Shown here one piece after another: positions 2,707 through 49,821 of a DNA stretch of 64,000 bases (position 1 is its first letter; each line of letters begins with the position of its first letter). The stretch lies in assembly GCA_046116545.1 (NCBI GenBank), contig CP175956.1, positions 1,089,734 through 1,153,733 on the forward strand. The letters are read 5' to 3'. The notes below the pieces were generated by a model that was not told where the DNA came from, ran no database searches, and saw only the letters and a program-made list of their open reading frames with translations. Position numbers and translations under genes: made by a program. Source of the stretch: Candidatus Moraniibacteriota bacterium (GTDB lineage Bacteria > Patescibacteriota > Minisyncoccia > Moranbacterales > GCA-2747515).

Positions 2707-3093
2707 TTATTTTGCGTCCAAATACTGTTGCAAAATAATTCTAGCTGACTCAGCATCATCAATGCTATCTATTTTTTTCTTTCCTGCATTTTTCAAGTTT
2801 ACGTGAGCCTCCCGTGTAGAAAACATTTCTTCTTCAAATACAATTTTCACTTTACACTTTTTTTCACATTCATCCGCAAATTTTTCAATTTTTTTCACAT
2901 TATCATCTTGTGACATATGACTACTCTTACCAATAACAATTTTTGTGATTTCATATTCCTTCACAATATCAAAAAGTCCTCCAAAGATATCATCATCATT
3001 TTCTAAAGTATTTAAAGCTGATGCTATTGATATTTCTTCTTCTGCAATAGCTAGCCCAATTTTTCTTTCTCCCCAATCAATGCCTAGTAACAT
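2707..3093 (-). CDS. ruvX: Holliday-junction resolvase-like putative pre-16S rRNA nuclease RuvX/YqgF
   Basis: 128 aa. N-terminal 'LLGIDWGERKIGLAIA' is the RNase H-fold YqgF signature. The length fits. Confidence 0.85.
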   Translation of the reverse strand: MLLGIDWGERKIGLAIAEEEISIASALNTLENDDDIFGGLFDIVKEYEITKIVIGKSSHMSQDDNVKKIEKFADECEKKCKVKIVFEEEMFSTREAHVNLKNAGKKKIDSIDDAESARIILQQYLDAK

Positions 3094-13700: not shown

Positions 13701-14487
13701 TATCTGTACCTATTCCAACATTTCCACCATTCAAATAACTATTACCTGCAGAGTCTAGATATACTTTTGCTACTCCAGTGTCAAATATTCTTAATAACCC
13801 CTTATCATAATCCACACCAATACCTCTAGGTTCTATTTGTCCAACTATGTAATCAGCCGAACTAAGTCTTATAATGGCACCATCACCAACAACCTGCAAC
13901 TTAGTATTTGGACTATCCGTCCCAATCCCAACTCTCCCATTAACAGTATCAACAAAAAAATCATTTGAATTAACTGTAAAGTCATCTCCCAGAGTTAATC
14001 CTCCAGTTTTATTTTGAATTGAGTTTGAAGTATTTAAATAGTAATCTTCTGTTTGTCCATTAAATCTATGTGAATTTAAAGCAAATCCTGTAGGAGTTAT
14101 CTTTCTCCTTGGAGTCATTTCTGGATTTGAGTTTATTGTTACTCCTAAGTAATAGTTTGAATCAAAAGATATATCTAATAGGTTATCTCCTGTTTCTCCT
14201 AGAGTTGTACTAAATATTCCATTTGTTATTGTAATTGTTTTTGAAGTTGGAGTTCCACATGATCCTCTACTTGTCCATAGACAATTTCCTCCTGTGTCTG
14301 CATCGTATATTGTTAATGTAAAATCATAATCTCCATCTGATACTGCTACGTTATTAGTATCTGTTAGTTTTCCATGATATGTTAGTTCACTGTCTGGTGC
14401 AGCTTGTGTAATTGAAAAATTAAGAATTATTGCTAACGCAATTATTCCTAATATGTAAGTTAATTTGTTTTTGAAAGTTTTTTTCAT
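4735..14487 (-). CDS. giant secreted/surface protein (3250 aa). Modules: tail-fibre-like 'NVGIGT' repeats, discoidin (F5/8 type C), Gly-rich region, DUF1566/Lcl-like lectin, LamG-like jelly roll, ten 51-aa propeller-type repeats, and a conserved C-terminal module.
   Basis: N-terminal signal peptide 'MKKTFKNKLTYILGIIALAIILNFSITQA'. The discoidin signature is 'NATSWLSQSGISTGWLQYDLG...DWTFEGSNDANTWTALDTRS'. The LamG_3-like block is 'GGSSMYFDGAGDYLNIPD...WHHIAFTRDGDTMKTFLDGV...LDEVRISKGIARW'. The Gly-rich stretch is 'GGGGAGGGDSHYGAGGAGG'. It is a single uninterrupted ORF of 9.75 kb. The N- and C-terminal modules are shared with the 2790-aa paralog. Confidence 0.85.
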   Translation of the reverse strand: MKKTFKNKLTYILGIIALAIILNFSITQAAPDSELTYHGKLTDTNNVAVSDGDYDFTLTIYDADTGGNCLWTSRGSCGTPTSKTITITNGIFSTTLGETGDNLLDISFDSNYYLGVTINSNPEMTPRRKITPTGFALNSHRFNGQTEDYYLNTSNSIQNKTGGLTLGDDFTVNSNDFFVDTVNGRVGIGTDSPNTKLQVVGDGAIIRLSSADYIVGQIEPRGIGVDYDKGLLRIFDTGVAKVYLDSAGNSYLNGGNVGIGTDNPLELLDINGNLKVGTRKAMEPSIFGYGSGYKSLILGSTGTTYGTDAVTISMGYDPSGNSNSGFNGDGREILFRNQAIFTQPNSTDDAWLRTLTMNNGDVGIGTISPGAKLDVNANAGDGIRIVDGVPNTRAFLGRHITGGAGIFELYNGSTVKTVYFDSGGDSYITSGNVGIGTTSPARELHLNKSSTTAGINISMTNTDTGTTNIDGTIYGIDGSENAQLWNFENTNMIFGTNSSERMRISNSGNIGIGTTSPTNFKLQVAGHIGPDADDTYDLGSSTNRFRDLYLGPNSLHIGENGNEGIISYDTINEAFNFDKAAVFGTSTNAVAGMIRWSGTDLEGYDGSVWNSLTSSGGTSTYTGLTDTPASLSANQIQFTNSAGNAITQNSNFTYDGNNLAIGGSITLNNDASACDVTKEGAMRYNDTSKVMEFCNGTIWGGLSTGTSGSGVTQTQVTLAQGESTTVSGSAIVSITEEQTETDKIQNINYNSEDNYTQEDLKENITQFQVDLVDTGGGTGPDLASGGAATSSTTYSASYLPSYGFDDNNATSWLSQSGISTGWLQYDLGSGNEAIVYEYSVRSNTAWAPKDWTFEGSNDANTWTALDTRSAEMSWLDGEKRNYSGFTNNIAYRYYRINISASNSVSYVGLAEMEFYEKTLGNYTGAYVTTITNQDGLDSANWTDINSVSVLENLNSQSIFYGVSFNNRHTFKVWTGSAWRYIASKEASVHGGTDGTWYFRDNVDTWSTVGIEDNANSAISKAVESGVMNQMNSTTLESISDADWESSGSFAIDQTTFDLSSTFYSTSDTQNPNLKRIDVSVDATGYAQKNVTDDYTVYQTTGLGDQTLTIVKKSPGTQTVTISSSAAGSSGGTSGINHIFTTAETWNAFENITETGLYQVIVNTENLATGSMRVLADDVLQYTIGLGDDEFSYFDIVASDNIKIESVSEGFTVGENITFDSNFSVVAQETAPQGITFNNDGTKMFVVGSTGDDINEYNLSVAFDSATAVYDSVFSVAAQETAPNDVTFNNDGTKMFIVGTTGDDVNEYNLSTGFDVSTAVYDSNFSVAAQDTAPQSMDFNTDGTKMFIVGNTGDDVNEYHLSTGFDVSTAVYDSRFSVATEEATPTGIAFNPDGTKMFIMGQTGIDMGEYELSTGFDISTANFVFRFSVSAQEATPQGIAFNTDGTKMFVTGNTGDDVNEYHLPRGFEFGPVDYSASFSVAAQDTSPQTMAFNTDGTKMFVVGLTGIDINEYHLSTAFDITTAVYDSIFDFSEDGSPQGIAFNTDGTKMFIIGNTADEINEYNLSTAFDISTAVYDSRFDITAQEDSPSGIAFNTDGTKMFITGLTGDDVNEYHLSTGFDVSTTVYDSNFSVVAQETAPQDIAFNTNGTKMFILGSTGDDVNEYKLSTAFDVSTAVYSSKFSVFAQDTVVQGIAFNNDGTKMFIVGATGDDITEYDVLPESFTGTVEVSVAASSGTSSTSYSNIWTQSGSNAYYDTGNIGIGTTTPDNFTLQVAGHIGPDTDDTYDLGSSTNRFRDLYLGPSSLHIGVDGDEAVISYNTISNEIEFSAPINLTGSITLTNDTDACDVNKEGAMRYNDSTKVMEFCNGTAWGAFSTGGFSSTCPSGFTKIENQGQTLGCMQNIESGTNNWEAATNDCFDAYGGRLPSVTEWYIAMANYVLTDETDDPEWNSNHDASNRYAESGNGSISNTGSSPDTSILAYRCWTSTNSDSNSVTSGGGGIASIQTFDTVGAHTWTKPAGIETIRVQVVGGGGGAGGGDSHYGAGGAGGYSEKIIDVSSLNTISVTVGVAGAAGSTGGAGTAGSTGGTTSFDTHCSATGGQGGSVSANYEGGSGGVGSGGDINVSGGNGIHTTNGGSSYFGGGGTAFSGKLEGQAYGSGGASLGGAGAGAGASGAVIIYEYAGSSESSSLPTCTDGQTLSYNESNSDWECADASAGSGGGNIDLNTKLLVQSDDADGSVKFMDSSISTHTITANGDAHHETDASKFGGSSMYFDGAGDYLNIPDSEDFEVYNNEFTIDFWMRADALPTGLHVLVGKYNYGGYSPWNIMQDGANIILYSSSNNSSHDVANARAIVTGINIDTWHHIAFTRDGDTMKTFLDGVLTDSFIFTGGFFNGSQTLKIGGADGGNYSFGGYLDEVRISKGIARWTSDFTPPTAPYEIQSSSSVAGGQNWKLMHVQDQKTTGTDGGTSSVGIQIRDLNTIIGTNEITDASLNGITGEITLPAGTYNVNITVPLIGTNRARLYFYNITDTENTLIGSNSYDGSGGSIASLSGKFTILDTKTFDVRQYAESATATVGLGRAVNQSPYEVYTDLKIWKIEESSGSSSSSYTPGFLYGFNLSNDSGDTDHDIYVSSGYAKDETDSKDLELTTGLTKQLDASFTEGDDQGGLFTGTIANDTMYHVFLIEKDDGTTDIGFDTDINASNIPSGFTSYRWLGYVLTNGSANIKQFQMSGDLMMWEKASEMTIPTTVSTSWIQRDYSAFVPTLGVKEIMFGGNEAGTANGWTLMCSADGINVMSHVARGGAADADTQEFAWGGAADHSTVIPYKSNYYFKTNGGSFNLLVHAVKLDRGSTSGGSTNSPWTQTGNNIAYTSGNVGIGSNNYGTNADNILTISNSIAPTTSITDGIQLFAVDQSGSHELRVRDEAGNTTTLSPHNFSNIPGGQSEELAWSYYSEKDNKSINVDMTKTVRLIEKLTGQQLIYITDKTTGLEIPNLNLIDISNLPTPEKISEIDTQINNTILQTNTNIQTLEDLQLSIDEQLSNTSEMLNQVQGDIVVNGESILETRVKSNINANLISEIDLRIQAAEEGLGVLDLLGATDLIKIEELLAIDAEKLVFTDELGSLTLDGVLNVKIIIADVVETSFIEVEELALENYGDNAIVGKSVICPTGTNFDVNEDGCVEVENSESDGQTVFVETEVVTGDSYIFLTPYGNDEQSVIVSEVQDGIGFTVKAKNIIENMIKFDWFIVKGVQ
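9340..10860 (-). repeat. in-frame tandem repeat, ~153-bp period x 10 copies (51-aa 'FSVAAQETAPQGIAFNTDGTKMFVVGNTGDDVNEYxLSTAFDVSTAVYDS' units)
   Basis: Direct reading finds 'tagatacatcaaat' at 9471 and again at 9624 (offset 153). Ten consecutive 51-aa units appear in the translated product. The antisense plus-strand ORFs at 9521-9742 and 10295-10915 are artefacts of this periodicity. Confidence 0.85.
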
Positions 14488-28421: not shown

Positions 28422-29144
28422 TTATCTCACAATCCAATTCTTTATATTAAGTACAACTATGTCCATTTGCTTATGCACAATATCATTAACAATTAACTTT
28501 GATAATGTTGTTAAGTCATTTCCATAAATAACTCTCATAGCCTTAATTGTATCTGGCTCTACATAACAAAAATAATCATTACAAAAACATTTTTCACATA
28601 AAATACCTCCTCTAGCTGAACTGAATCCATTTTTCTTTTTTACTATACTTAATCCGCATACAGAACATGCATTAACATTGAAATCATATCCTTGCAATGC
28701 AAATATTTTTAACAAGAAGGCGTGTGTTACCCACTCAAATTCCATTTCAATACAATCTTCTTTTTGTGCTAATTTATTTAATTGCCTTAAAAACTGCACC
28801 CATATTGCAAAAGTTTCTTCATCAACAAAATTCTCATCAATTATTTCCAAAAATATTTTACGAGCTTTATCTAAACACTTTAATGCCATATGGTTTTCAT
28901 GCACCTCAACAAAATACTCTTCTGCTATTGCACCTGCCAAAACACCTCTGCCATAATTTTTCACAATCATTATGTGAGATAACATAAAATCTTCAATCTG
29001 AGATGCCATTTTTGATTTACCTTTTCTACTAGATTTAGCTGGCACCCGTATAAGGCCTTCTTCCAATGTATAAAATGTATACAACCTATCCGCTTCACCA
29101 ATATTAAATTTTTCTAATGCAATCGCATAATAATTATGTTTCAT
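28422..29144 (-). CDS. recO: DNA repair protein RecO
   Basis: 240 aa. An N-terminal OB-fold-like region and a C-terminal C4 zinc finger 'CSVCG...CEKCFC'. Typical length, and placed in an ileS-recO cluster. Confidence 0.65.
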   Translation of the reverse strand: MKHNYYAIALEKFNIGEADRLYTFYTLEEGLIRVPAKSSRKGKSKMASQIEDFMLSHIMIVKNYGRGVLAGAIAEEYFVEVHENHMALKCLDKARKIFLEIIDENFVDEETFAIWVQFLRQLNKLAQKEDCIEMEFEWVTHAFLLKIFALQGYDFNVNACSVCGLSIVKKKNGFSSARGGILCEKCFCNDYFCYVEPDTIKAMRVIYGNDLTTLSKLIVNDIVHKQMDIVVLNIKNWIVR

Positions 29145-32803: not shown

Positions 32804-35800
32804 TCATTCAGAGCCTTCTACAATAAACCAATCAAACTTTATCATATTCGTGATAGCATCTTTCACTTTAACAATGAATCCAACTCCATCTTGAATTTCT
32901 GATACTGATACTAATTGTTCAACATCTCCATGAGGTGTTACAAATATATGACTATTATTTGTTACAGCTTCTGTGGCAACAAATATACTTTGACCATCAC
33001 TTTCACTTTCTAAATCAACTACACAATCATCATCAGCCTCATCATAACTTGTATCTTCTGGACAAATTACTGATTTACCTACAATAGAATCATCTTCTTG
33101 ACTTTCTACTGTCAGCTTATTTATTTCAATTTCTTGTGCAACAAGCTTCTTAACACTTAGTAATCCTTCTAATGTCAAATCTATGACATCTGCAATAATT
33201 TCATTCCCATCTCCATCAACTGTTGATTGTGTTAATACTCCATTTTCAACAAATATTAACTTATCTACATCCAGTGCTAATACTCTCGTATCAATATTAG
33301 TTAATATACTTAGACTTGCTTGCAAGTCATCTATTCTACTATTTATCTCAGGAATCACTTGTTGTGTTAGTGTATTTGCTTCATCTCGTAATTCTAACAC
33401 ATCATCACCAACTTGATTTATGGTATTATAAGATGTTTCAAATTGATCGTCTGTTGAACTTTGCAAATCAACTATATTTGTATCCGTTTTTAATGTAAGA
33501 CTTTTAATACTTGTGTCTATTTCTTGCATTTTATCTGGTGTTGGTAAATCAAGAATATTTAATGAATCAATTTGTGGTATCTCAACCCCTGTATTTTTAT
33601 CAGTTATATATACCAATTTTTCTCCTGTAAGCTTTTCTATAAATCTCATAGCTTTTGTCATATCCACATTGATAATTTTTTCATCTCTTTCTGAACGATA
33701 TGCCCATGCCATATCTTCACTTGCGCCTGCTGGAATATCTGAGAAATTATGTGGTGAAAGAGTTGTTACATTTCCAGCTTCATCACGCACTCGGAGCTCA
33801 TGACTACCAGCATCCTCAACTGCAAACAGTTGAATACCATCTGTAATACTAGCTGTCGGTGCTACTGAACTTGAAATAGTTAATAAATTATTTGCATCAG
33901 TCCCATAATTTTCAGAACCAATTGCCATATTTCCACCATCATAATAAATACCCTCAAAGTTCTCTGTCCACAAAGTATCGCCGTCAGGATTCTCTGTGTT
34001 AACACAATAAAGCACATTCACATTTGTTGGACGTGTTTCACTTCCACCTGTTGCCTGCGTAGTCATTGTTGGCTTCCAATTATATACACCTTCTTTTTTA
34101 TAACCTGTAGTAGTTCCAGCTGCATCATTTTCTGCATCATGTAATTGGAAATCATGATCATGACTTGCAAATTCATCATCTTGAGTAGTTCCTACTGCAT
34201 CACCTGTTGTACCATCACCTCTATCACCACGACTAGCTGCATCTGGATCCAGACCAGCACCATGATCCCAACCACGTAAGAATCGTCCACGATAATCTGG
34301 TACATTAAACGTGCTAGAACCATCACCATCACCATACATATCACCAAGTACTGCATAAAGATCTGGATATGCTGTTCGTGAAGCTTCAGCACCATCTGCC
34401 TCAAGCCAACCTGGTGGACACACTTCTGTAGCATATGCATTCACAGTTCCAGCTGACAATGAATCCGTTGTCCCATGACTACCTATATCCTTTTTTGTAA
34501 TTGCAACACCAGCAACCACATCTCCTGCTCCAGCTGCTGTAAACACAACTCTCAAACTTGATTCATACTTTATATGTGGCAAATTAATAAACGTGTTATC
34601 ATCACCGACTTCATCTTCAAAAAGTCCAACATCTAAACTTTGTAATACACCATCAATTTCAATTGTCACCTCAGATATTGAAGCACCCTCAATATGACCT
34701 GATACTAAATAACCAGATTCATTAGAAATATCAATTAATGTCATTATTCCAACATCAGATTGAACTCTATGTTGTGTAATTCCTCCATTAAGATCATCTG
34801 CCGTTAAATAATCAGATGTTGTACTTCCAATAATAATACCTCCACCGCCACTTCCTGTGCTCAATGCTCCCCAAACTGTACCGTTACAAAACTCCATCGC
34901 CATTTGTGTCGTATTGTATCTCATTGAACCTTCCTTACTTGAATCACAAGCATCAAAATCAGAACCAATTCTTATACTACCTTCTATATCCAAGTTTGTA
35001 CCATCAAACATTAGATTGGTACCTGCAACAATTGCATTTCCAATACTATTAGTATACGGGATTGAACCTGCAATATAGCTTGATGGTGTATCTGTGAGGT
35101 CTAGAAATGATAAATCTGGAGATGTGAATGATTTCCATTGTGTACCATTATATCCTTCAAAATCAGTTCCAGTCCATCGTATATTACCTGCAATTGTATT
35201 TGTTGTTGAACCAAGTCTAATAGCACCATCCACATCCAATGCTTCTTGTGGTGTATTTGTACCAATTCCAACATTTCCACTTGTGTAATATATATCAGAA
35301 CCATTTTGTGTCCACATGCCCAATCCTGTTGTCGGTTGGTCTCCGGCTTCGTTTATTGTTTTTACGTATTGTGGTGAATATGCATTAGTTGCTGTGCTAT
35401 TACCTAACTGTCCTTGTCCATTATATCCCCAACATTGCACACGTCCGCCAGTAGTCTTAACACATGTATGTGTCAGACCTCCATAACCACCCATAGCAAT
35501 TTGAGTTGCGCTGTCTATATTTGAAACCTTAACTGGAGAATATTGATCTGTTGTATTTCCATTTCCAACCTGTCCATTTGCATTATATCCCCAACAACTC
35601 ACCTCTCCACTATTATGTAGTGCACATACTGTTCCATATAAATTATAACCACCTGCAATAATAATGTCTTTAACATCTGTAAGTCCTGGATCTACTGGTG
35701 AATTACTATTTGTTGTTGTCCCTATACCTAATTGACCTCGTCCATTATGTCCCCATGACCTCACTGTTCCATCTTGCAATACTACAAATGTTACATTTCC

Positions 35801-38800
35801 ATTATCTCCACCAATAGCAATATCAAATGCATTTGTAATTCCTAATACTTGAGAAGGTGCCGTCCTATTTGTTGTATCACCTAAACCAAGTGCTCCATCA
35901 TCATTATTTCCCCAACACCATACAGTATTATCATTTTTAATTGCACATCTATGGACCTGTCCAGTGTAATCACCTTGAGCAACCATCTTTGATACATTAT
36001 TTATTGTAATAGGTGTAGGTGTATTTCTTGCTGTAGTTGTACCATCCCCAAGTTCTCCTTGAGCATTTGCTCCCCAACATTGAACTGAACCATCATTGAA
36101 TTGTGCACAATATGAAGCTGTATTTCCTCCACCACCTGATATATCAGCCACATTTCCTGTGATTATTTGTACTGGTGAAGTTTGCTGTGTTGTATTTCCA
36201 TTTCCCACTTGACCTGAAGCATTATATCCCCAACAATATACATTTCCACTTGTGTCTAATGCACATGCTGAAGCTGCTACATTATGTAAATTCCTTGATG
36301 TAGCAATTTTTGAAATATTTTCCAATGCTCCCACTCGCACAGGAGTTGGTCGCTGTGTTGTTGTACCATCACCAAGTGCACCATGACCATTATATCCCCA
36401 AGCATACAAATGACCATTTTCAAGTATTGCATATGTTATTTGTCTATTTGTACTAATTGAGCTCACATTTTCTGGCAATACCACTTCAACTGGTAAGTAT
36501 TTATTTGATATCATACTATCATCACCCAATTCTCCATTTACGTCACGTCCCCAACATTGTACTTTTTTATCTTCCATTATTGCACATGAAATACCTGCAT
36601 TACTGTTTCCCTCCCACAACTTCTCAACCTGATTGATAGTAGTTTCACCACCAGCTGCACCAACTGATATACAAACAGGATCTCCATTTGCATCAAATCC
36701 TCTTAATGCTTCTCCTATTGGACATTGTGTTGTTATGTTAGATGCTAATATATTTCCTGAAGTATATATATCTCCTCCTACTACTGATAGTTTATGTGTT
36801 GGGTTTGTTGTTCCCAATCCTAAGCTTCCACTTTCTGTAAGTGTTAATGTTTGTGTTCCATTTAGTGATATTGCAAAGTTATTATCTACTTGTTCTCTTA
36901 GAGTCCATAGATTTGAATTTGCTCCACTATCTGCTAGTTGTAATATATTTGTTTGTGTTGTTCCGTTTATATCTAATTCGTAATTTGGTGTTGTTGTATT
37001 TATTCCTACATTTCCACTTGTATAATATATATCTGATCCGTTTGCTGTCCACAGTCCACCACCAACTACAGGATTGTCATCATATGTTTCATTAACAGTT
37101 TTCACATATTGAGGAGTTGTCCTCATAGTTTCTGTTCCATTTCCAAGTTGTCCATATGTGTTATCTCCCCAACATTTCATCCTACCATCTATCAATGTTA
37201 CACAAGCATGAGTTGGTCCTGCAAAGCCTCCCATTGCAATATCCTTTGCATATTCAACACCCTCAACAAGACTAGGTGTTGTTTGTGGATTTACAGTTGT
37301 ACCGTTTCCTACTTGACCATTACCATTATATCCCCAACAACTCACTTCACCACTATTATGCAGTGCACAAACAGTTCCATACAAACTATATCCACCAGCA
37401 ATTACCACTTTACTCACATCTGTCAAACCTGCATCCACAGGTGTACTACTATTTGTAGTTGTACCAATGCCCAGCTGTCCTCCACCATTATAACCAGTTG
37501 ATCGTACTGTTCCATCTTGCAATACCACATGTGTTGAAGCACCATTATCACCACCAACTGCAATATCAACTGCATTTGTAATTCCAAGCATTTGTGTTGG
37601 CACATGACGATCTGCTGTATCTCCTACTCCCAAAGCACCATTACCATTATCTCCCCAACACCATACAGTACCATCATTTTTAATTGCACACTTATGACCA
37701 TCTTCACCATAACCACCTTGAGCCACAATTTTTGAAACATTTGACAAACTAATTTGCGTAGGAATATTTCTGTCAATAATAGTACCATCACCAACTTGAC
37801 CTTGAGAATTTCTTCCCCAACACCACACAGATCCATCTGTTTTTGTAGCACAAAATGAACTATATTGACTTCCACCTCCTGAGATACCTGTTACATCTGC
37901 TGCAATAATTTGAACTGGTGAAGTTTGTTGTGTTGTTGTACCATTTCCTACTTGTCCATATCCATTATATCCCCAACAATATACAGCGCCCACATCATTT
38001 AATGCACATACAGTGCCATGATTTTGATATAAGTTTTCTGAAGTTGCTATTTCTGTAATATCTTCCAACGTTCCTATTCTTACTGGAATATGTCTCACTG
38101 TAGTTGTTCCATCTCCCAATTCACCTTGTGCGTTATACCCCCAACCATATACTTGTCCATTTTCTAAAATTGCATATGTTGAATGTTTGTTTGTAATAAC
38201 TTCTTCTACATCACCTGGTAAATTTACTATTTCCGGAAATGGTTTGTCTGCTGCATTCACACCTGTCCCAACTTCACCACTATCATCATGTCCCCAACAC
38301 TGTACAGTTTTATCTTCCATTACTACACATGAAGTTCCATCATTTGATTGTCCTTTCCATATTTTTTCTGCTTTATTTATAGCCAATTCACCACCAGCAG
38401 CTCCAACTGATATACAAACAGGATCTCCATTTGCATCAAATCCTCTTAATGCTTCTCCTATTGGACATTGTGTTGTTATGTTAGATGCTAATATATTTCC
38501 TGAAGTATATATATCTCCTCCTACTACTGATAGTTTATGTGTTGGGTTTGTTGTTCCCAATCCTAAGCTTCCACTTTCTGTAAGTGTTAATGTTTGTGTT
38601 CCATTTAGTGATATTGCAAAGTTATTATCTACTTGTTCTCTTAGAGTCCATAGATTTGAATTTGCTCCACTATCTGCTAGTTGTAATATATTTGTTTGTG
38701 TTGTTCCGTTTATATCTAATTCGTAATTTGGTGTTGTTGTATTTATTCCTACATTTCCACTTGTATAATATATATCTGATCCGTTTGCTGTCCACAATCC

Positions 38801-41176
38801 TGATCCTGCTAGTGGTTGGTCTCCTGCTTCGTTTATTGTTTTTACGTATTGGGGGGTGTATCTATGTAATATATCTCCTTGACCTAATTGACCGTAACCA
38901 TTGTACCCCCAGCACATCATTCTTCCATCTGTTTTCTTGACACAATAATGTGGACCCGTTGTAACTCCCGCAACCGCAAGATCTTGCACATCTTCCAATC
39001 CTGCAACTTGCAATGGCGTTGTTTGATCTGTTATCGTACCATTTCCTACCTGACCATATGCATTATACCCAAAACATGAAACTGTTCCATCTGTATGTAA
39101 TGCACAGGTTGTAGAATGCACATATCTATTTGTAGTATCATACGCAGAACCACCTGGTATAATCTTTGATACATTTGTAAGTCCTGAATCTACTGGAGAA
39201 ACTTGATTAGTTGTTGTTCCATCACCTAATTGACCATGGTTATTATATCCCCAACCTCTTACCGTACCATCTTGCAATGTTACAAATGTTGAGCCTCTTA
39301 TACCTCCAGTTGCTTTAATACTTGTAGCCGTTGTAATCCCTGATACCTGTGTAGGTGCATTTCTTTGTGTTGTATCACCTACTCCTAATTGACCATAACC
39401 ATTATATCCCCAACACCATACTGTTCCATCAGTCTTAATGGCACATTTATATCCTTGACCAGGATAACTCCCATCAATGACCATATCTGATACATTTGCA
39501 ATATTTATTTGGATTGGATTACTCCTATTTGTTGTGGTTCCATCACCTAATTGACCGTAACCATTGTAACCCCAACACCATACTGTTCCATCTATTTTCG
39601 CAGCACAAAATGATGCGTAAGCAGCATTACCACCGTAAATATTATTCACACCTGTTAGCACTTGTACTGGTGAAGTTGCATTTGTTGTTGTTCCATCTCC
39701 TACTTGTCCATAAGCATTGTATCCCCAACAACTAACATTTCCACTACTATCTATTGCACAAGCAGTTGTTGTCTCTTGCATCTGCATTCTTGCTGTAACT
39801 ATCGTCTCTACATTTTCAAGTGTACCTACTCTTACCGGAGTATGTCTCGTTGTAGTTGTTCCATCACCTATTTGCCCCTCATTATTACGTCCCCAAGCAT
39901 ATGCATGACCATTTTCTAATATTGCATAATTGATATTCTTTGTAGACACTACACTTTCTACATCTCCAGGTAACACAACTTCTTGAGGAAATAATTTATT
40001 TGCAATGTCTGCTCCTGTACCTAGCTGTCCGTCATCATCACGTCCCCAACATTGCACACCCTTATCCTCCATCACCACACATGTTGAATAATCTGTATAT
40101 TGACCTTCCCATAATTTCTCAACTTTATTTATAGTTGAAATATCCGCTCCATTATCAGTCAATGATAGCCAATTAGAACCATCATATCCTTCAAAATCAG
40201 CACCTGTCCAACGAATTGTGCCTGCGTTTGTATTTGTTGTATTCCCAATATTTAATGCTCCCGCTATAGTAAGAGATTCCAGCGTACTATTAGTACCTAT
40301 TCCTAATTGATTATTTATATCATCCCAAAAAAGTGCTGTATTATCATCCAATACTCCAGCAGCATTAGTAAATAAAATCGAACCTGATGTATAGCTTCCT
40401 ATAGTATCTGTTAATGATAGGAAATCTGATGCTCCACCACTTCCACCCGAAGTAAGTGAAAGCCAACTTGAACCATCATATCCTTCAAAATCAGTACCAG
40501 TCCACCTAATTGTTCCAGCATTTGAATTAACAGTATTTCCAAAATTGACACCACCGTTAACTGTTAATGTCTCCGTTGTCGTAGATGTACCTATCCCAAC
40601 TCTGTTATTTGCAGTATCTACAAATAAATCATTTGAATTAACTGCAAAATCACCACCAATCTCTAAGCTACCAACTTTTGTTTGATTTGTGGATCCTGTA
40701 TTTAAATAATAATCTTCAGTTTGTCCATTTAGCCTATGTGCATTTAACGCAAAGCCTGTAGGAGTCACCTTTCTTCTAGGAGTCATCTCTGGATTTGATC
40801 CTATTTTTACTCCCAAATAATAATTTTGAGAAAAATCAATATCAATCAGATTATCACCCACTTCTCCCAATATAGTATTGAATATCCCATTTGTTACTGT
40901 AATTGATTTTGCTGTTGGAGTTCCGCATGTTCCTCTACTAGTCCAAAGGCAATTTCCTCCTGTATCCGCATCATATATTGTTAATGTGAAATCATAATCT
41001 CCATCTGATACTGCTACGTTACTAGTATCTGTTAGTTTTCCATGATATGTTAATTCTTTATCTGGAGTCGCAATTACATTTATTGATGTAATTAAAATAA
41101 AAAACAACAAAAAGAAGCTTCCTAATGCATAATTTAATTTACTCATCGTATTTGAAAGTTTTTGTTTTACACCCAT
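32804..41176 (-). CDS. giant secreted/surface protein (2790 aa): N-terminal module shared with the 3250-aa paralog, three tandem RCC1-like propeller modules, a phage-tail-collar domain, and the shared C-terminal module
   Basis: A signal peptide is present. RCC1 repeats 'WGYNGYGQLGDGTTTNRSNPIQI' occur more than 20 times in three ~581-aa super-modules. The tail-collar signature is 'CPPGWLEADGAEASRTAYPDLYAVLGDMYGDGDGSSTFNVPDYRGRFLRGWDHG'. The C-terminal ~470 aa are ~80% identical to the 4735-14487 product and end '...MIKFDWFIVEGSE'. Confidence 0.85.
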   Translation of the reverse strand: MGVKQKLSNTMSKLNYALGSFFLLFFILITSINVIATPDKELTYHGKLTDTSNVAVSDGDYDFTLTIYDADTGGNCLWTSRGTCGTPTAKSITVTNGIFNTILGEVGDNLIDIDFSQNYYLGVKIGSNPEMTPRRKVTPTGFALNAHRLNGQTEDYYLNTGSTNQTKVGSLEIGGDFAVNSNDLFVDTANNRVGIGTSTTTETLTVNGGVNFGNTVNSNAGTIRWTGTDFEGYDGSSWLSLTSGGSGGASDFLSLTDTIGSYTSGSILFTNAAGVLDDNTALFWDDINNQLGIGTNSTLESLTIAGALNIGNTTNTNAGTIRWTGADFEGYDGSNWLSLTDNGADISTINKVEKLWEGQYTDYSTCVVMEDKGVQCWGRDDDGQLGTGADIANKLFPQEVVLPGDVESVVSTKNINYAILENGHAYAWGRNNEGQIGDGTTTTRHTPVRVGTLENVETIVTARMQMQETTTACAIDSSGNVSCWGYNAYGQVGDGTTTNATSPVQVLTGVNNIYGGNAAYASFCAAKIDGTVWCWGYNGYGQLGDGTTTNRSNPIQINIANVSDMVIDGSYPGQGYKCAIKTDGTVWCWGYNGYGQLGVGDTTQRNAPTQVSGITTATSIKATGGIRGSTFVTLQDGTVRGWGYNNHGQLGDGTTTNQVSPVDSGLTNVSKIIPGGSAYDTTNRYVHSTTCALHTDGTVSCFGYNAYGQVGNGTITDQTTPLQVAGLEDVQDLAVAGVTTGPHYCVKKTDGRMMCWGYNGYGQLGQGDILHRYTPQYVKTINEAGDQPLAGSGLWTANGSDIYYTSGNVGINTTTPNYELDINGTTQTNILQLADSGANSNLWTLREQVDNNFAISLNGTQTLTLTESGSLGLGTTNPTHKLSVVGGDIYTSGNILASNITTQCPIGEALRGFDANGDPVCISVGAAGGELAINKAEKIWKGQSNDGTSCVVMEDKTVQCWGHDDSGEVGTGVNAADKPFPEIVNLPGDVEEVITNKHSTYAILENGQVYGWGYNAQGELGDGTTTVRHIPVRIGTLEDITEIATSENLYQNHGTVCALNDVGAVYCWGYNGYGQVGNGTTTQQTSPVQIIAADVTGISGGGSQYSSFCATKTDGSVWCWGRNSQGQVGDGTIIDRNIPTQISLSNVSKIVAQGGYGEDGHKCAIKNDGTVWCWGDNGNGALGVGDTADRHVPTQMLGITNAVDIAVGGDNGASTHVVLQDGTVRSTGYNGGGQLGIGTTTNSSTPVDAGLTDVSKVVIAGGYSLYGTVCALHNSGEVSCWGYNGNGQVGNGTTVNPQTTPSLVEGVEYAKDIAMGGFAGPTHACVTLIDGRMKCWGDNTYGQLGNGTETMRTTPQYVKTVNETYDDNPVVGGGLWTANGSDIYYTSGNVGINTTTPNYELDINGTTQTNILQLADSGANSNLWTLREQVDNNFAISLNGTQTLTLTESGSLGLGTTNPTHKLSVVGGDIYTSGNILASNITTQCPIGEALRGFDANGDPVCISVGAAGGETTINQVEKLWEGNSNAGISCAIMEDKKVQCWGRDVNGELGDDSMISNKYLPVEVVLPENVSSISTNRQITYAILENGHLYAWGYNGHGALGDGTTTQRPTPVRVGALENISKIATSRNLHNVAASACALDTSGNVYCWGYNASGQVGNGNTTQQTSPVQIITGNVADISGGGGNTASYCAQFNDGSVQCWGANAQGELGDGTTTARNTPTPITINNVSKMVAQGDYTGQVHRCAIKNDNTVWCWGNNDDGALGLGDTTNRTAPSQVLGITNAFDIAIGGDNGNVTFVVLQDGTVRSWGHNGRGQLGIGTTTNSNSPVDPGLTDVKDIIIAGGYNLYGTVCALHNSGEVSCWGYNANGQVGNGNTTDQYSPVKVSNIDSATQIAMGGYGGLTHTCVKTTGGRVQCWGYNGQGQLGNSTATNAYSPQYVKTINEAGDQPTTGLGMWTQNGSDIYYTSGNVGIGTNTPQEALDVDGAIRLGSTTNTIAGNIRWTGTDFEGYNGTQWKSFTSPDLSFLDLTDTPSSYIAGSIPYTNSIGNAIVAGTNLMFDGTNLDIEGSIRIGSDFDACDSSKEGSMRYNTTQMAMEFCNGTVWGALSTGSGGGGIIIGSTTSDYLTADDLNGGITQHRVQSDVGIMTLIDISNESGYLVSGHIEGASISEVTIEIDGVLQSLDVGLFEDEVGDDNTFINLPHIKYESSLRVVFTAAGAGDVVAGVAITKKDIGSHGTTDSLSAGTVNAYATEVCPPGWLEADGAEASRTAYPDLYAVLGDMYGDGDGSSTFNVPDYRGRFLRGWDHGAGLDPDAASRGDRGDGTTGDAVGTTQDDEFASHDHDFQLHDAENDAAGTTTGYKKEGVYNWKPTMTTQATGGSETRPTNVNVLYCVNTENPDGDTLWTENFEGIYYDGGNMAIGSENYGTDANNLLTISSSVAPTASITDGIQLFAVEDAGSHELRVRDEAGNVTTLSPHNFSDIPAGASEDMAWAYRSERDEKIINVDMTKAMRFIEKLTGEKLVYITDKNTGVEIPQIDSLNILDLPTPDKMQEIDTSIKSLTLKTDTNIVDLQSSTDDQFETSYNTINQVGDDVLELRDEANTLTQQVIPEINSRIDDLQASLSILTNIDTRVLALDVDKLIFVENGVLTQSTVDGDGNEIIADVIDLTLEGLLSVKKLVAQEIEINKLTVESQEDDSIVGKSVICPEDTSYDEADDDCVVDLESESDGQSIFVATEAVTNNSHIFVTPHGDVEQLVSVSEIQDGVGFIVKVKDAITNMIKFDWFIVEGSE
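36660..37050 (-). repeat. 391-bp 100%-identical direct repeat, copy 2 (the linker between RCC1 modules 2 and 3)
   Basis: Identical by eye to 38403-38793 (offset 1743 bp = 581 codons). It encodes 'GGLWTANGSDIYYTSGNVGINTTTPNYELDING...CISVGAAGGE' in both copies. Confidence 0.9.
38403..38793 (-). repeat. 391-bp 100%-identical direct repeat, copy 1 (the linker between RCC1 modules 1 and 2)
   Basis: See copy 2. Flanks diverge immediately outside: 'tgcacc' vs 'agctcc' on one side, 'cacagtcc' vs 'cacaatcc' on the other. Confidence 0.9.
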
Positions 41177-44184: not shown

Positions 44185-47100
44185 CTAGGCAAGACCTTTC
44201 CTAACATTGATATTACCTTGTTTTTCAAAAGGTTGTCCTGATATTGGTTGTCCTTTTACTTTCATATTGTAATCTCCATTTTCTGCTAGAAGATAATATC
44301 TTCCTATTGCATCTGTTACAGCGAATCCTGTTTTTTGATTTGTTTCTTTGTTATGGAGTGATACTACTGCAAAAGGTACTGGGTTTTTATCATGTTTTGT
44401 TACTGTTCCATATTTCTTTTGTTTTATGAAGTTATCATAAATGAACAGTGCCATATATAGAGATAGGAATATGTAATTTAGAGTTGATGGGTACAGGTAA
44501 GTTATTGCTGCTGTAGCTATAAATCCTACGTAAAAAAGAATTATGAAGCTCCATTTCTTTATTGCTGAGAAAGTTCCTGTATAGCTTTTTACTTTTTTAT
44601 CTGCATATTCATTCCAGTTTATATTCAGGGCATTCATTGCAATATTTGTTGCTAGAACTTTGTTTTCTTCTATTGTTAATGCTTCTCCTGTATATACATC
44701 TCCGTATAGTGAATCATGGTTATGAGTTAGGTCTTCTTCATATTTTGGTTTTTCTGGATGTATCAGATATGTTCCATTTGTTGTTAAGAATCCAAATCTT
44801 CCATGTTGATCTGAGTATGTTGTTTCTATTTCAAAGCCCTCTATATCAGTTAGAACTAGTTTTACTCCAGGCAATGGTTGTTTTGTTGTTTGTTCAAACA
44901 CTGTTCCCCAGTTTTGTTCATTTTTTCTTCTAGCTAATATTCCTAAGAAAGGCATTATGAATATATCTGTTGCTGCCATTGGGATTGTTGTGAATAGAGG
45001 GATTGTTGTTGAAGCTAGAGCTATTAGTGTTCCTGTTGTTAATCCTACTACTGCAGCTGCTTGATATTGTTTTTCTTTTTGTTGTTCCTTTGTTGGTTCT
45101 TGTACAGGAGGATCTGTTACTTCTTGTGCTGGTGGTTCAGGATCACTTCCTCCTTGTACTACTGGAGGAGTTACTATTTCTTTTTCTTCTCTACTAGCGC
45201 TACATGTTATTTCTTCATCATCATTTGTACATGTCCATGAAGATGATTCTCCTTGATTTGGAAATTCTGGTATATTTAATACTTCTCCTGTTTGACAGAA
45301 GTCTCCTGTGAATTCTGATTCATCTTCTGTATATGTTTTACTTGATTCTCCACATTCTGGATTTACTATTTCTTTTGTAGGTCCTAGAGTTGTTTTTTCT
45401 GTTGTTGCTGTTTTAGAATGTGGACAGTATTCGTAGCTATCATCTTCTTGATATGATACTTTGAACCTATATTGGGTATCTTCTTCTAGGTTATCTATCT
45501 CTAGAGTTACTCTTCCACTATCAGATGGTTTATCCGTTAGTTTTATTGTTTCTTTTTCATTTGTATATAGATTCTCTACTTCTACTTTGAATTTTATTTT
45601 CTCATCTGCGTATTCTTCATCTACTTCTACTCTTAGAGTTACTGAATCTTTTGTTATTTCTTTTATATTGTCGGTTTTGCATTCTTTTTCTTCTTCTGGA
45701 TCCTCTGGGTCTATTGGTGGGGTTACTGGAGAATCACATGATGGGTCTGGTTTTGTTTTGTATGTGAAGTCTGATCCTGTGTTGTCAGGAACTTGAGTCT
45801 CTGTTGTTAATACTGAAATCTCATTAACTTGTGCATCAATCGAAGTTGCAATATTTGGAATTCTTTCTATTTTTAATACTTCCAATATTGTACCATTAGC
45901 AGTTTGAAATCGTACTGAGCCTAAATTTCTATCCATACCTGTTAAATCTATCTCCCCACCTGTAGAACTAATAACTTGTGTTTGCCACATTTCAAGATTT
46001 GTTCCTGCTGCATTCCATTGCCAAATTATCACATTTACATCATCACCATCATGATTTAACTCAAATCGCAATTTATCAGATGCTGTTATTACATCAGGAG
46101 TTATTAATTCTAAACTAAATTCATATGTTTTTTGTCCAATATATTTAACTCCATCCCATGTACCGTTAAGTGGGCTTGCACCAGCTCCTGCTGGATGAAA
46201 TGCATTCCAATGTGATATATCTGTAATGTCAGTCCAACTTGGCAAAACTATATCATGATTAAATACGTATTTTATATATCTTCCAAACTCATCAATATCA
46301 ATTGATTCCTCCCATGAATCAGGTGTATTGATATCCCAATCTGAAATTAATGCACTACCCATGTTATTTACATCATCTGAAATATATATATCTATTTTAG
46401 GCAAATCATCACTACTACTGTCTATATATGCACGCATTTTTTGAATTTGTTTTGACTCACTCATATCATATATTGCATAGGCAGCCTCAGTGTCATAAGT
46501 ATATACATCACCTGTTACCACATCATTATTAATGGTATTATCTGCACTTGGCCAATTTGTACTGACCTCATATACTGATTGTGGTTGACTCCATTCTGTA
46601 GTTACTTGTTCTTCATCAATCATTTTTATATCAGTAACATTACAGTCTTTTTTATCTGAATCTGGCATTAGCACATACTCCCATGTAACTTGATTATTAT
46701 TTGAATACAAAAATGAAGTTGTGTCTGAATGTGTACTTTCTTCTGAACCTACTTCATAACACTCACACTCTAGAATTGTTTTAATAACTGTATTATCACC
46801 TGGTGTTGGTGGCATTATACTTTGAGACTCATATTCAACACGAACACCATCCAGCACTGGCACTGAACCTTTGTATAAAATTGCTTTCCATCTTAGATTA
46901 TCGCCTTTTATATCAAAAATTAATTCTTCACCACTATTAACTTGTATCCATGTAGCACCTCCATCAATTGAAAGATAATATTCTATCCTTGATTCTCCTT
47001 CTAATTCTTCATCCGCTATTAGAGTTGCTTTTATTATATCTGCAATACTTCCATTTATTTTATCTGACTGCACTACTGCTGGAGATATAATCTCTGTTGG

Positions 47101-49821
47101 CAAAATTGAAAAATGAATATCTTGATCACCCCAATTTTCTCCCCAAACTACTGATGGCTCATCATTTGAATTAATCACTATATCTAAATTTAATGTCTCA
47201 ACATTGCCAGATAAACTATCACTCTCCGTTGACTCACCGTCACCGCCAGTCCAAGATGATCCATTCCACATTTTGAAATGTGTACTAGACCACTCAAGCT
47301 CACTCCATACAATCATAGGACGATTATCAGAAGTCAATTCCATATCCATATATTGAACTTGTTTACCTGTCTCATCTACTACATCATATCCTATTGTTCC
47401 ATCCATCTTTTCCCATGCTAGACTATCTAATCTTGTAAGATGTATATTTTGTTGCTCATCTACCCAAGATACAATAGGATTATCTTCATTATCTAAATTT
47501 AATCGTACTATTTCAGTATATCCAACATTCATATGACGACTTTCCCAAGAACCTTCATCCCACGTCTGCACACCTAACCTGATAATCCCCTCAGCATTTA
47601 TGACATATGCAACAACTGGATTATTATTTGAATCAACTTTTAATTGAGGTATTCCATTAGACATCCAATTCTCAAGTTCATCATTATCAGTCCCACCATC
47701 CATAGAGCTCCATGAGCCACCATTCCAATGTGCAAAATGTATAGAACGCATATCCGCATTATCCACATATGTAATCATTGGATTATTATTGCTATCCCTA
47801 GCTAATTGAATTTGTATTGGAGAACCTCCAAAATTCATCTGATCATATGATGCTGGACTACTCATTTTACCGTTCCACTCACTACCTGTCCATTCAGTAT
47901 AACCAACTTCAAATCCTTCCCCATTATCTATCTTTGTTACAATCATAGGATGCCCACCAGAACTTAATACCATATTAAATTCATAATTCCACATTGGCAA
48001 ATTATCACTGAATATTCTATCAGAATCAATAATTCCTCCCATAGTAACCCAAGCATCACCACTCCATTTTCTCACAAATATATCAACTGCATCTTCTTGT
48101 ACATCAGGGATTTCCTCTTGTATACCAATCCAAGCTACAACAGGATTTCCATCATTATCCACAAAAATTTGTGGTTGACTAGCTTGTCTACAACCATCAT
48201 TGGCCTCATCTATTGGTCCCTCCATTGTAAATGCAAGGGCATTATGTACACCAAGCAATCTCAACAAATTATCCAACATGCCAATATCACCGGGTTCACC
48301 TCCGGGTTCACCATCTCCACCTTCATCTGAACACATGGATACAGTTGTCGAAATATCCTCCTTACCAGCAACATCACTCATTGTAACCCAATCATCACCA
48401 TCCCACATTGTAAACATTATATCACCATCTTCTTCCCAAACTACCATTTGATTTCCATCACTATCTAGTGTTATTTTTGGATCATATCCACGATCATTCA
48501 TATTATTTTGTATGTCCTCTTTTCCTAACGTAGACCTATCTGCATTTGTCCAGACACCGCTAAACCCTGCTAATGAAAATGATGTGTCTTCATTATCCAA
48601 AAACGCAGTTGTTTCATCTTTGTCTACAAAGTTTTCTGTATCAAAACTGTCTTCAAATCCAAATTCATTCCCATCTGGACGAGTCGTAAAATTCCAATCA
48701 TCTTTAACATCAAATCCTGCAAAATCATTTATAAAAGACTCCTCAATTAAAACAAAGTATTTCGTGTCAAAGCTTAATTCTTGTTCCCAATCAATTACTA
48801 AATTACTTGTATTCCAACCTGTAATTCTATCACTCATACCATCTAATTCTTCTATCAAGCTCTCATCATCATACTTATATATTCCTATATTACCATTTCC
48901 AAAGACTGCATCCTCAGTAAATTGAATACTAAGATTATCGTTATTATCTGCAGTATTGCTCCCATGTATAGGATATTTACTGTCAATCACCAAACCTGTT
49001 ACAGAAGGATAAAAAAACATTCCTCCGATATAATAATAGTAATTTAACGTATCAGTATCCACAACTTCAACTATTTCTTCCGTGTTTATATTTACGTTAT
49101 ACACAACATAACTATCCTCAACAATATAAAAATTTTCTCCATCAATATTCACCAGATCATTTATATCATCTCCAAAATCTCCAATGCCTTCATATACCAT
49201 TGTAGGTTCTGATGGATTATTCAAATCAATTGTATACATGTCTACTCCATCCACATAGTACATCAGTTCATTTTCAATATCATATGATAATGCTATACCT
49301 CTATGATTATAATCATAATTTTCTATGAAAGTTATTCCTACATTAACTTCATTAATTAAATACAAAGAAGCATCTTCTACACTAGACATTCCATACAAAC
49401 TACCATCCTTATCAAAGGCTATAGATTGAATATTCTCAGATAAATCACCAATTTTCACTATATCTCCAGTATCCATATCCACAGTAGCTAGCACAGAATC
49501 ACCTTCTGCATCAAAAACAGCAAATACAATTCCGGTATCCCAATTTACAGCTACACTTAATATGTTGTGCCAATCTCCAATAGGTGTTGCATCCAAAGAT
49601 GTTGCCTTATCTGCTTCAAAATCACCCTCATCAACTCCATACAAATAACTATTACCCGCACTTCTGTTATAGCTCTCCAAAATATATAAATCCAGCTCTT
49701 CGGATGCTGGAATAGCTGGCATAGACGGTAACGGAGCTTCTGGTGCAGCAACTACGACATTAGCAAATAAAAAAACGAAAATACTAATTATTCCAATAAG
49801 CTTCATTCTCAAATTTATCAT
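44185..49821 (-). CDS. giant acidic surface protein (1878 aa) with propeller-like repeats and a C-terminal region where TM helices alternate with two CarboxypepD_reg-like beta-sandwich domains
   Basis: A signal peptide is present. Repeated blades 'DGNPVVAWI', 'NNPMITYV', 'NNPVVAYV', 'DNPIVSWV', 'NRPMIVWS', 'DEPSVVWG' carry a periodic Trp. The C-terminus has hydrophobic helices flanking 'PLPGVKLVLTDIEGFEIETTYSDQHGRFGFLTTNGTYLI' and 'PVPFAVVSLHNKETNQKTGFAVTDAIGRYYLLAENGDYNMKV'. The true start may be the Met 5 codons downstream (MKLIGIIS...). Confidence 0.8.
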   Translation of the reverse strand: MINLRMKLIGIISIFVFLFANVVVAAPEAPLPSMPAIPASEELDLYILESYNRSAGNSYLYGVDEGDFEADKATSLDATPIGDWHNILSVAVNWDTGIVFAVFDAEGDSVLATVDMDTGDIVKIGDLSENIQSIAFDKDGSLYGMSSVEDASLYLINEVNVGITFIENYDYNHRGIALSYDIENELMYYVDGVDMYTIDLNNPSEPTMVYEGIGDFGDDINDLVNIDGENFYIVEDSYVVYNVNINTEEIVEVVDTDTLNYYYYIGGMFFYPSVTGLVIDSKYPIHGSNTADNNDNLSIQFTEDAVFGNGNIGIYKYDDESLIEELDGMSDRITGWNTSNLVIDWEQELSFDTKYFVLIEESFINDFAGFDVKDDWNFTTRPDGNEFGFEDSFDTENFVDKDETTAFLDNEDTSFSLAGFSGVWTNADRSTLGKEDIQNNMNDRGYDPKITLDSDGNQMVVWEEDGDIMFTMWDGDDWVTMSDVAGKEDISTTVSMCSDEGGDGEPGGEPGDIGMLDNLLRLLGVHNALAFTMEGPIDEANDGCRQASQPQIFVDNDGNPVVAWIGIQEEIPDVQEDAVDIFVRKWSGDAWVTMGGIIDSDRIFSDNLPMWNYEFNMVLSSGGHPMIVTKIDNGEGFEVGYTEWTGSEWNGKMSSPASYDQMNFGGSPIQIQLARDSNNNPMITYVDNADMRSIHFAHWNGGSWSSMDGGTDNDELENWMSNGIPQLKVDSNNNPVVAYVINAEGIIRLGVQTWDEGSWESRHMNVGYTEIVRLNLDNEDNPIVSWVDEQQNIHLTRLDSLAWEKMDGTIGYDVVDETGKQVQYMDMELTSDNRPMIVWSELEWSSTHFKMWNGSSWTGGDGESTESDSLSGNVETLNLDIVINSNDEPSVVWGENWGDQDIHFSILPTEIISPAVVQSDKINGSIADIIKATLIADEELEGESRIEYYLSIDGGATWIQVNSGEELIFDIKGDNLRWKAILYKGSVPVLDGVRVEYESQSIMPPTPGDNTVIKTILECECYEVGSEESTHSDTTSFLYSNNNQVTWEYVLMPDSDKKDCNVTDIKMIDEEQVTTEWSQPQSVYEVSTNWPSADNTINNDVVTGDVYTYDTEAAYAIYDMSESKQIQKMRAYIDSSSDDLPKIDIYISDDVNNMGSALISDWDINTPDSWEESIDIDEFGRYIKYVFNHDIVLPSWTDITDISHWNAFHPAGAGASPLNGTWDGVKYIGQKTYEFSLELITPDVITASDKLRFELNHDGDDVNVIIWQWNAAGTNLEMWQTQVISSTGGEIDLTGMDRNLGSVRFQTANGTILEVLKIERIPNIATSIDAQVNEISVLTTETQVPDNTGSDFTYKTKPDPSCDSPVTPPIDPEDPEEEKECKTDNIKEITKDSVTLRVEVDEEYADEKIKFKVEVENLYTNEKETIKLTDKPSDSGRVTLEIDNLEEDTQYRFKVSYQEDDSYEYCPHSKTATTEKTTLGPTKEIVNPECGESSKTYTEDESEFTGDFCQTGEVLNIPEFPNQGESSSWTCTNDDEEITCSASREEKEIVTPPVVQGGSDPEPPAQEVTDPPVQEPTKEQQKEKQYQAAAVVGLTTGTLIALASTTIPLFTTIPMAATDIFIMPFLGILARRKNEQNWGTVFEQTTKQPLPGVKLVLTDIEGFEIETTYSDQHGRFGFLTTNGTYLIHPEKPKYEEDLTHNHDSLYGDVYTGEALTIEENKVLATNIAMNALNINWNEYADKKVKSYTGTFSAIKKWSFIILFYVGFIATAAITYLYPSTLNYIFLSLYMALFIYDNFIKQKKYGTVTKHDKNPVPFAVVSLHNKETNQKTGFAVTDAIGRYYLLAENGDYNMKVKGQPISGQPFEKQGNINVRKGLA

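Follow-up and report, generated by a model that had tools for sequence, protein, structure and literature searches.

An exact repeat within a giant fibre-like gene

The DNA examined here is a stretch of 64,000 nucleotides from a Candidatus Moraniibacteriota bacterium (assembly GCA_046116545.1, contig CP175956.1, forward-strand positions 1,089,734 to 1,153,733), which we refer to as the window; all coordinates are those of the window. It contains a giant gene, called G1 below, whose product was a 100% match to NCBI entry XLQ20013.1, annotated as 'MAG: tail fiber protein [Candidatus Moraniibacteriota bacterium]', where MAG denotes a metagenome-assembled genome. The database model is 2780 aa long and starts 10 codons downstream of the G1 open reading frame (ORF) start. 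G1 contains three RCC1-like modules and two stalk segments that are identical in DNA sequence, and the origin of that identity is the subject of this analysis.

A fixed-offset scan at 1743 bp identified an exact direct repeat of 394 consecutive matches between positions 36660–37053 and 38403–38796. Both arms lie inside the single minus-strand ORF of G1 (32804..41176, 2790 aa) and are separated by a diverged RCC1 module of 1349 bp. Their spacing is exactly 3 × 581 nucleotides, i.e. 581 codons, such that the two arms are in frame with one another, and at the protein level the stalk copies were identical over 138 residues. An earlier reading made from the sequence alone had reported this repeat with the same offset; its length of 391 bp fell 3 bp short, while the identity and the other coordinates held. 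The repeat was by far the longest in an all-versus-all comparison of exact repeats of at least 30 bp in the window; the runner-up was 53 bp long and sits within another repetitive gene. Comparison of the window with itself by BLASTN revealed no further long repeat with an identity of more than 85%. Given a flank identity of about 70–72%, the probability of a run of 394 matches by chance is ~1e-56.

The regions flanking the arms are RCC1-like. G1 matched Pfam families PF25390 (RCC1-like, E = 8.7e-195) and PF00415 (RCC1, E = 1.1e-154, in 21 stretches), and the modules matched UVR8, HERC1/2 and RCC1 in the PDB. We counted 24 WGxNxxGQLG signatures spaced 51–60 aa apart, eight in each module, whereas canonical RCC1 propellers have seven. 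The sequence-only reading had described three tandem super-modules; three RCC1 propellers were indeed present, but the identical segment follows only modules 1 and 2. Protein identities of the RCC1 parts in the three pairwise comparisons were 57.6%, 58.3% and 62.3%, slightly lower than the 60–70% proposed previously, and RCC1-2 and RCC1-3 aligned without indels. An AlphaFold2 monomer model of module 2 plus the stalk, built from a three-sequence alignment, had a mean predicted local distance difference test score of 54 (21–37 in the stalk part). Database matches for a deeper alignment of the RCC1 module amounted to just four near-full-length segments.

The repeat arms had been described as module linkers, but database comparison showed them to be more than passive linkers. 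A phmmer search of the PDB with the 138-aa stalk segment matched the β-helix of Bdellovibrio Bd2133 (8OND, E = 1.1e-6, in three stretches) as well as 8OJN (E = 1.6e-3), and PHROG 9942 (tail fiber) matched the stalk with E = 6.6e-8. Bd2133 belongs to the mosaic adhesive trimer (MAT) fibres, by which Bdellovibrio, a predator, recognises its prey, and the stalks of these fibres bear the capping-loop motif V-G-G/N-x-x-x-P-x-x-x-L (PMC10769870). The stalk segment of G1 contains this motif twice, as NVGINTTTPNYEL and LGLGTTNPTHKL. Judged by these likenesses, G1 encodes a phage-tail-fibre-like giant protein, and the repeat arms are stalk elements of it. The protein may form a trimeric surface fibre with three propeller tiers.

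Age and edges of the identical tract

Synonymous and nonsynonymous distances (dS and dN) were calculated with the Nei–Gojobori method (NG86) from a codon alignment of the modules. The three pairs of RCC1 parts had nucleotide identities of 63–68%, with dS values of 1.09–1.37 and dN values of 0.30–0.39. Over the 137 codons of the stalk compared between modules 1 and 2, nucleotide identity was 99.3%, dS was 0.03 and dN was 0. There were only three synonymous differences in the stalk, and all of them were situated directly outside the 394-bp tract. Inside the tract not one synonymous difference was found in ~95 synonymous sites, compared to ~57 expected if the proportion of synonymous differences were that of the flanks (~0.6).

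Both edges of the tract were sharp at the DNA level. In the orientation of the gene, the codon immediately ahead of the tract encodes Leu, as TTG in one copy and as CTG in the other, and the tract is followed immediately by a Gly-Ala pair encoded by GGA GCT in one copy and GGT GCA in the other. As the amino acid sequence remained conserved past both edges while DNA identity stopped, protein-level purifying selection cannot explain the identity. Moreover, the presence of synonymous differences right at both edges indicates that the stalks were homogenised at the DNA level.

The most likely explanation for these results, with a probability of roughly 0.7 in our estimation, is that the identical stalks are the product of recent intragenic gene conversion, in which non-reciprocal homologous recombination replaced one copy with the sequence of the other. 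In this scenario, the arms are paralogous stalk copies that separate three anciently duplicated RCC1-like propeller modules, and one of the two copies would have been overwritten in the recent past. This event was perhaps the latest round of an ongoing concerted evolution limited to the stalk; the RCC1 parts, with 63–68% DNA identity, would have been too diverged to join in the conversion. The tract may equally record a single conversion, as one genome does not distinguish between one event and the latest of many.

Several observations count in favour of conversion. RecO (28422–29144) and RuvX (2707–3093) are encoded in the window, and distant relatives of the fibre gene also carry intragenic repeats that are 97–100% identical. 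In addition, the genome contains at least five giant paralogs with exact protein blocks, indicating that recombination among fibre segments is common in this organism. Other points weigh against this interpretation. The identity is that of one consensus sequence, from the one assembly present in the searched collections. No relative with the RCC1 region was found in them, so that concerted evolution, in which copies within a genome resemble each other but differ from those of other genomes, is conjectural here. Conversion also requires that the two stalks were already alike, which is assumed, and no RecA gene was seen within the 64-kb window, a statement that applies to the window only.

The sequence-only reading had named recent gene conversion or unequal crossing-over as the source of the identity. 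The first of these is favoured by the absence of differences at ~95 synonymous sites, by the differences at the edges and by RCC1 dS values above 1. With respect to the second, no 90-nucleotide segment of RCC1-2 exceeded 88% identity to either of the other two modules, and no chimeric pattern was apparent. This disfavours unequal crossing-over as the origin of the present arrangement and excludes a recent duplication of the whole unit. One could still envisage that a stalk plus RCC1 unit was duplicated recently by unequal crossing-over and that the RCC1 part then diverged rapidly, either under diversifying selection or through a diversity-generating retroelement (DGR). The regular 1743-bp period and the indel-free alignment of RCC1-2 with RCC1-3 are consistent with such a history, but we consider it very improbable because dS of the RCC1 parts is saturated (1.1–1.4) and third codon positions are the main location of the mismatches between RCC1-2 and RCC1-3 (166 of 337). 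These mismatches involve all four bases approximately in proportion to composition, without an A bias, and no reverse transcriptase was identified among the window ORFs of at least 100 aa. Recent whole-unit duplication followed by divergence was discarded as effectively refuted by the synonymous-site data. The possibility that the region is a DGR target was likewise dropped, as no reverse transcriptase domain was present in those ORFs, the arms were identical and the RCC1 mismatches were not A-specific.

Conservation could also be imposed on the nucleotide sequence itself if the segment held an RNA, an antisense gene or a mobile element in frame with the ORF, for instance a mini-intein. Antisense ORFs do overlap the arms (36633–36983 and 38187–38726), but their extents differ between the two copies, and the stalk segment matches fibre β-helix proteins. 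We found no Rfam family in the 32–42 kb region, and promoter-like or terminator-like sites did not exceed shuffled expectation. An embedded RNA and an antisense gene were rejected on the basis of the Rfam result, the unequal antisense ORFs and the lack of an excess of promoter or terminator sites. An intein was rejected because the segment, as read from its sequence, has no intein-like termini. Of all the explanations considered, a constraint of this kind is the one to which we give the least credence.

Gene layout, paralogs and assembly

The features of G1 and of a paralogous fibre gene in the window, G2, are compiled in Table 1. The hydrophobic N-terminus of G1, recognised by eye in the translation, is a putative signal peptide or membrane anchor, and a hydrophobic N-terminus of the same kind was present in all of the paralogs. 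The DNA encoding the N-terminal domain was 80.6% identical to that of G2 at 13919–14397. The third stalk has only its 'WTxNGSDIYYTSGNVGIGT' start in common with the repeat (the first ~75 nucleotides, ~80% identity) and continues as the IRWTGTDFEGY type. The Collar domain scored 75.5 bits relative to a Pfam gathering cut-off of 24, and phrog_523 matched with E = 1e-27.

Table 1. Positions of G1, its constituent segments and the paralogous gene G2 in the window
Feature	Coordinates	Strand	Evidence
G1, giant gene	32804..41176	-	2790 aa; ORF list, translation
N-terminal hydrophobic segment, aa ~14-36, ALGSFFLLFFILITSINVIA	41069..41137	-	translation
N-terminal family domain, aa 36-208 (~170 aa)	40553..41071	-	69-76% identical to paralogs, BLASTP
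Two 'GIGT...IRWTGxDFEGYDGS' stalk units ahead of RCC1 array, aa ~190-345	40142..40609	-	repeat family D10, motif positions
RCC1-like module 1, aa 349-792, 8 WGxNxxGQLG signatures	38801..40132	-	Pfam, motif count, alignment
Stalk copy 1, repeat arm, aa ~795-925	38403..38796	-	exact repeat; PDB 8OND, phrog_9942 matches
RCC1-like module 2, aa 933-1373	37058..38380	-	Pfam; PDB UVR8/HERC/RCC1; dS 1.1-1.4 vs other modules
Stalk copy 2, other repeat arm, aa ~1376-1506	36660..37053	-	exact repeat
RCC1-like module 3, aa 1514-1952	35321..36637	-	Pfam, alignment
Third, diverged stalk segment	34859..35320	-	DNA and protein alignment
Phage Tail Collar domain PF07484, aa 2243-2300	34277..34450	-	Pfam E 3e-21; tail collar fiber PHROGs
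~100-aa domain, aa 2427-2526	33599..33898	-	57-70% identity with phage-like fibre proteins
C-terminal family region, aa 2401-2790 (~390 aa)	32807..33976	-	BLASTP 41-51% to paralogs; alignment
G2, paralogous fibre gene, 3250 aa	4735..14487	-	Pfam: discoidin, Gly_rich_2, LamG; Kelch-like repeats

The ~100-aa domain downstream of the Collar domain (…APTxSIxDGIQLFAV…HELRVRDEAGNxTTLSPHNF…INVDM…LTGExLVY) also forms the C-termini of hundreds of fibre-like proteins of ~450 aa, at 57–70% identity. It was found in addition at 157 loci on IMG/VR viral contigs, and bacteria of many phyla carry matching loci. Neither Pfam nor PHROG had a model that matched this domain.

G1 is one of at least five giant mosaic fibre paralogs (2,500–3,300 aa) carried by the genome, the others being XLQ19853.1 (2466 aa), XLQ19940.1 (3249 aa), XLQ20057.1 (3101 aa) and G2 (3250 aa). 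These proteins have their two terminal regions (N and C) as well as their stalk motifs in common, whereas the central cassettes differ and include discoidin, Kelch-like repeats, SPRY, LamG and glycine-rich segments. Pairs of paralogs contained exact protein blocks of 124–287 aa on a background of 50–70% identity, which is the mosaic that would be expected from frequent recombination. G1 itself had no exact block longer than 30 aa in common with its paralogs; its sole long exact block is internal. G2 contains about 10 Kelch-like repeats of 153 bp (9343–10837) that are merely 70–77% identical, as well as exact protein blocks of 152, 267 and 211 aa shared with paralogs elsewhere in the genome (XLQ19853.1 and XLQ20057.1).

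The neighbours of G1 are genes for isoleucyl-tRNA synthetase, a GT4 glycosyltransferase, arginyl-tRNA synthetase, pyruvate kinase, RecO, RuvX and a P-type ATPase, all on the minus strand. All plausible genes of the window (1–64000) are encoded on this strand, GC skew is monotonically negative and GC content is ~33%; tRNA genes were not found in the 64 kb. An unrelated secreted protein of 1878 aa with Big_5 and CarboxypepD_reg domains and C-terminal transmembrane segments is encoded at 44185–49821 (minus strand). The stretch at 44–46 kb has an odd composition relative to the rest of the window, with a GC skew of -0.02 and an AT skew of -0.31.

Relatives of G1 were sought in several collections. 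A protein search with full-length G1 returned only XLQ20013.1, generic RCC1 proteins and the paralogs, without a second copy of the gene, and a scan of GTDB genome contigs with the C-terminus of the family gave no match. Scanning the GTDB genomes with the ~100-aa domain identified 63 loci. The closest of these, L090 from another Moraniibacteriota MAG, was 76% identical in DNA sequence over 33596–34458 and begins at the Collar domain, without the RCC1 region. A scan of JGI metagenomes yielded nine distant loci, none with RCC1. A word-indexed protein search with a 167-aa stalk query gave one weak match (P0001) and missed the database entry of G1 itself (P0002), which contains the stalk twice, one copy being exactly as in the query. 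From this failure we conclude that the word index was incomplete and that negatives from that search are weak evidence.

Among 15 Patescibacteria-type relatives, seven run off the start of their contig (L090, L093, L099, L101, L105, L109 and L134). Furthermore, the contigs of L008 (1–1122) and L009 (1–796) start inside intragenic repeats of 198 bp and 145 bp that are 100% and 97% identical, respectively. These findings suggest that such fibre genes routinely break short-read assemblies, and the remark in the sequence-only reading that the repeat is an assembly hazard was reasonable. A locus in a Saprospiraceae long-read MAG (L122) has 1.2-kb repeats that are 99% identical; as they lie outside any large open frame, this case was not used.

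The main technical rival to gene conversion is an artefact of assembly or consensus, in which similar stalks were collapsed into one sequence through bubble popping or multi-mapped polishing, or in which the copy number of RCC1-2 plus stalk was mis-stated. An exact repeat of 394 bp is longer than typical short-read k-mers, this organism is represented by one assembly only in the searched collections, and related fibre loci in short-read MAGs frequently end contigs, with L008 and L009 beginning inside near-identical repeats. Nevertheless, the source record is one contig of 1,286,331 bp, which suggests long reads or careful curation, and RCC1-2 can be placed in the genome only with stalk sequence on both sides. 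The edges of the tract are also clean, in frame and at homologous codons. Even if a collapse had occurred, it would at most have turned an identity of at least 98% into 100%, and the contrast with flanks of ~70% identity would persist. We regard an artefact as unlikely. The repeat is also a warning that the module count of G1 calls for caution.

Possible recombination joints and module variation

A by-product of gene conversion would be 394 bp of perfect homology that homologous recombination could use for unequal exchange. Such an exchange would delete or add exactly 581 codons, corresponding to RCC1-2 and one stalk, in frame. The sequence-only reading had proposed that the repeat is a substrate for in-frame loss or gain of a module, and the 1743-bp spacing bears this out. 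Module loss or gain is arithmetically possible, and length or phase variation of the fibre is a possible consequence.

It can be argued that the identity was selected, i.e. that identical stalks are retained as recombination joints for losing, gaining or swapping ligand-binding cassettes, whether through length variation of the periscope type or through shuffling of cassettes. This idea agrees with the in-frame offset of the arms and with the organisation of the paralogs, in which termini and stalk motifs are conserved and central cassettes (RCC1, discoidin, Kelch-like, SPRY, LamG) differ. Among other surface proteins the concept is an established one (PMC8201768), and the MAT fibres of Bdellovibrio have been proposed to undergo 'tip swapping' (PMC10769870). 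On the other hand, no length variant was observed in the one genome available, there are two identical copies only rather than an array, and G1 is not visibly exchanging with its paralogs, given the 30-aa limit on exact blocks noted above. Conversion alone can leave identity as a neutral by-product. Moreover, a trimeric stalk with identical segments would be in danger of assembling out of register, which would disfavour the long-term upkeep of such segments. Selected contingency seems to us improbable, if somewhat less so than an assembly artefact.

Gene conversion without selection for the joints remains our preferred interpretation, and at this level the locus offers a clean textbook tract, with edges set by synonymous sites, within a giant repetitive gene. 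Greater interest attaches to the setting than to the repeat: a genome of 1.29 Mb from the Candidate Phyla Radiation (CPR) encodes at least five giant tail-fibre-like mosaic surface proteins, and the stalks of these proteins resemble those of the prey-recognition fibres of the predator Bdellovibrio. A speculative extension, which we consider doubtful although a little less remote than the selected maintenance just discussed, is that identical stalks act as portable recombination joints in at least five mosaic, phage-derived host-recognition fibres of an episymbiotic CPR bacterium. If this were true, the joints would allow recombination to delete, duplicate or swap cassettes (RCC1, discoidin, Kelch-like, SPRY or LamG), and both fibre length and host specificity would be subject to standing variation within populations. 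Such a system would parallel, in a cell, the mosaicism of phage tail fibres and the 'tip swapping' of MAT fibres in Bdellovibrio. Reshuffling of binding cassettes at stalk joints, if it occurs, would also be relevant to host recognition and host change in ultrasmall bacteria that depend on a host.

Comparison with known systems

G1 and its paralogs share several properties with the MAT fibres of Bdellovibrio. These include the match of the stalk to a β-helix (Bd2133, 8OND) and the capping-loop motif, as well as a multi-gene repertoire, a conserved N-terminal domain, a chimeric composition and kinship with phage tail fibres. The bacterium probably lives on other cells, in keeping with the CPR lifestyle, and would share this trait with Bdellovibrio. 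The genes described here differ in that they are 2.5–3 times longer and have RCC1 propellers inserted between stalk segments. Their variable cassettes are central instead of forming a C-terminal tip, and conservation across the five paralogs extends over the C-terminal ~390 aa (41–87%). Peptidase_S74, a chaperone domain that is a C-terminal feature of MAT fibres, gave no Pfam match.

Likeness to phage tail collar fibres (PF07484; PHROG 523, 1858 and 9942) extends to the Collar domain, the GNVGIGTxxP-type stalk motif and the ~100-aa domain. Phage fibres also show mosaicism by recombination. In contrast to these fibres, G1 resides in a cellular genome among housekeeping genes and has an N-terminal sequence of signal or anchor type; phage structural or packaging genes were absent from the 64-kb window.

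The closest parallel for the repeat itself is provided by the Periscope Proteins (SasG, Rib and Sgo_0707), for which high DNA identity has been proposed as the substrate for intragenic recombination leading to in-frame gain or loss of units (PMC8201768). Like G1, they are surface proteins encoded by genes with DNA-identical repeated segments. Periscope Proteins contain a tandem array of near-identical domains, whereas the modules of G1 are 58–62% identical as protein and its two identical segments of 131 aa are non-adjacent, with a diverged RCC1 module of 441 aa between them. The would-be variable unit of G1 is a propeller plus stalk of 581 aa rather than a small rod domain. Periscope Proteins vary in repeat number between strains, while G1 is known from one genome. 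With these differences, G1 is a fresh example of a known phenomenon, in which the DNA-identical repeats of a surface gene are both the product of intragenic recombination and a substrate for it.

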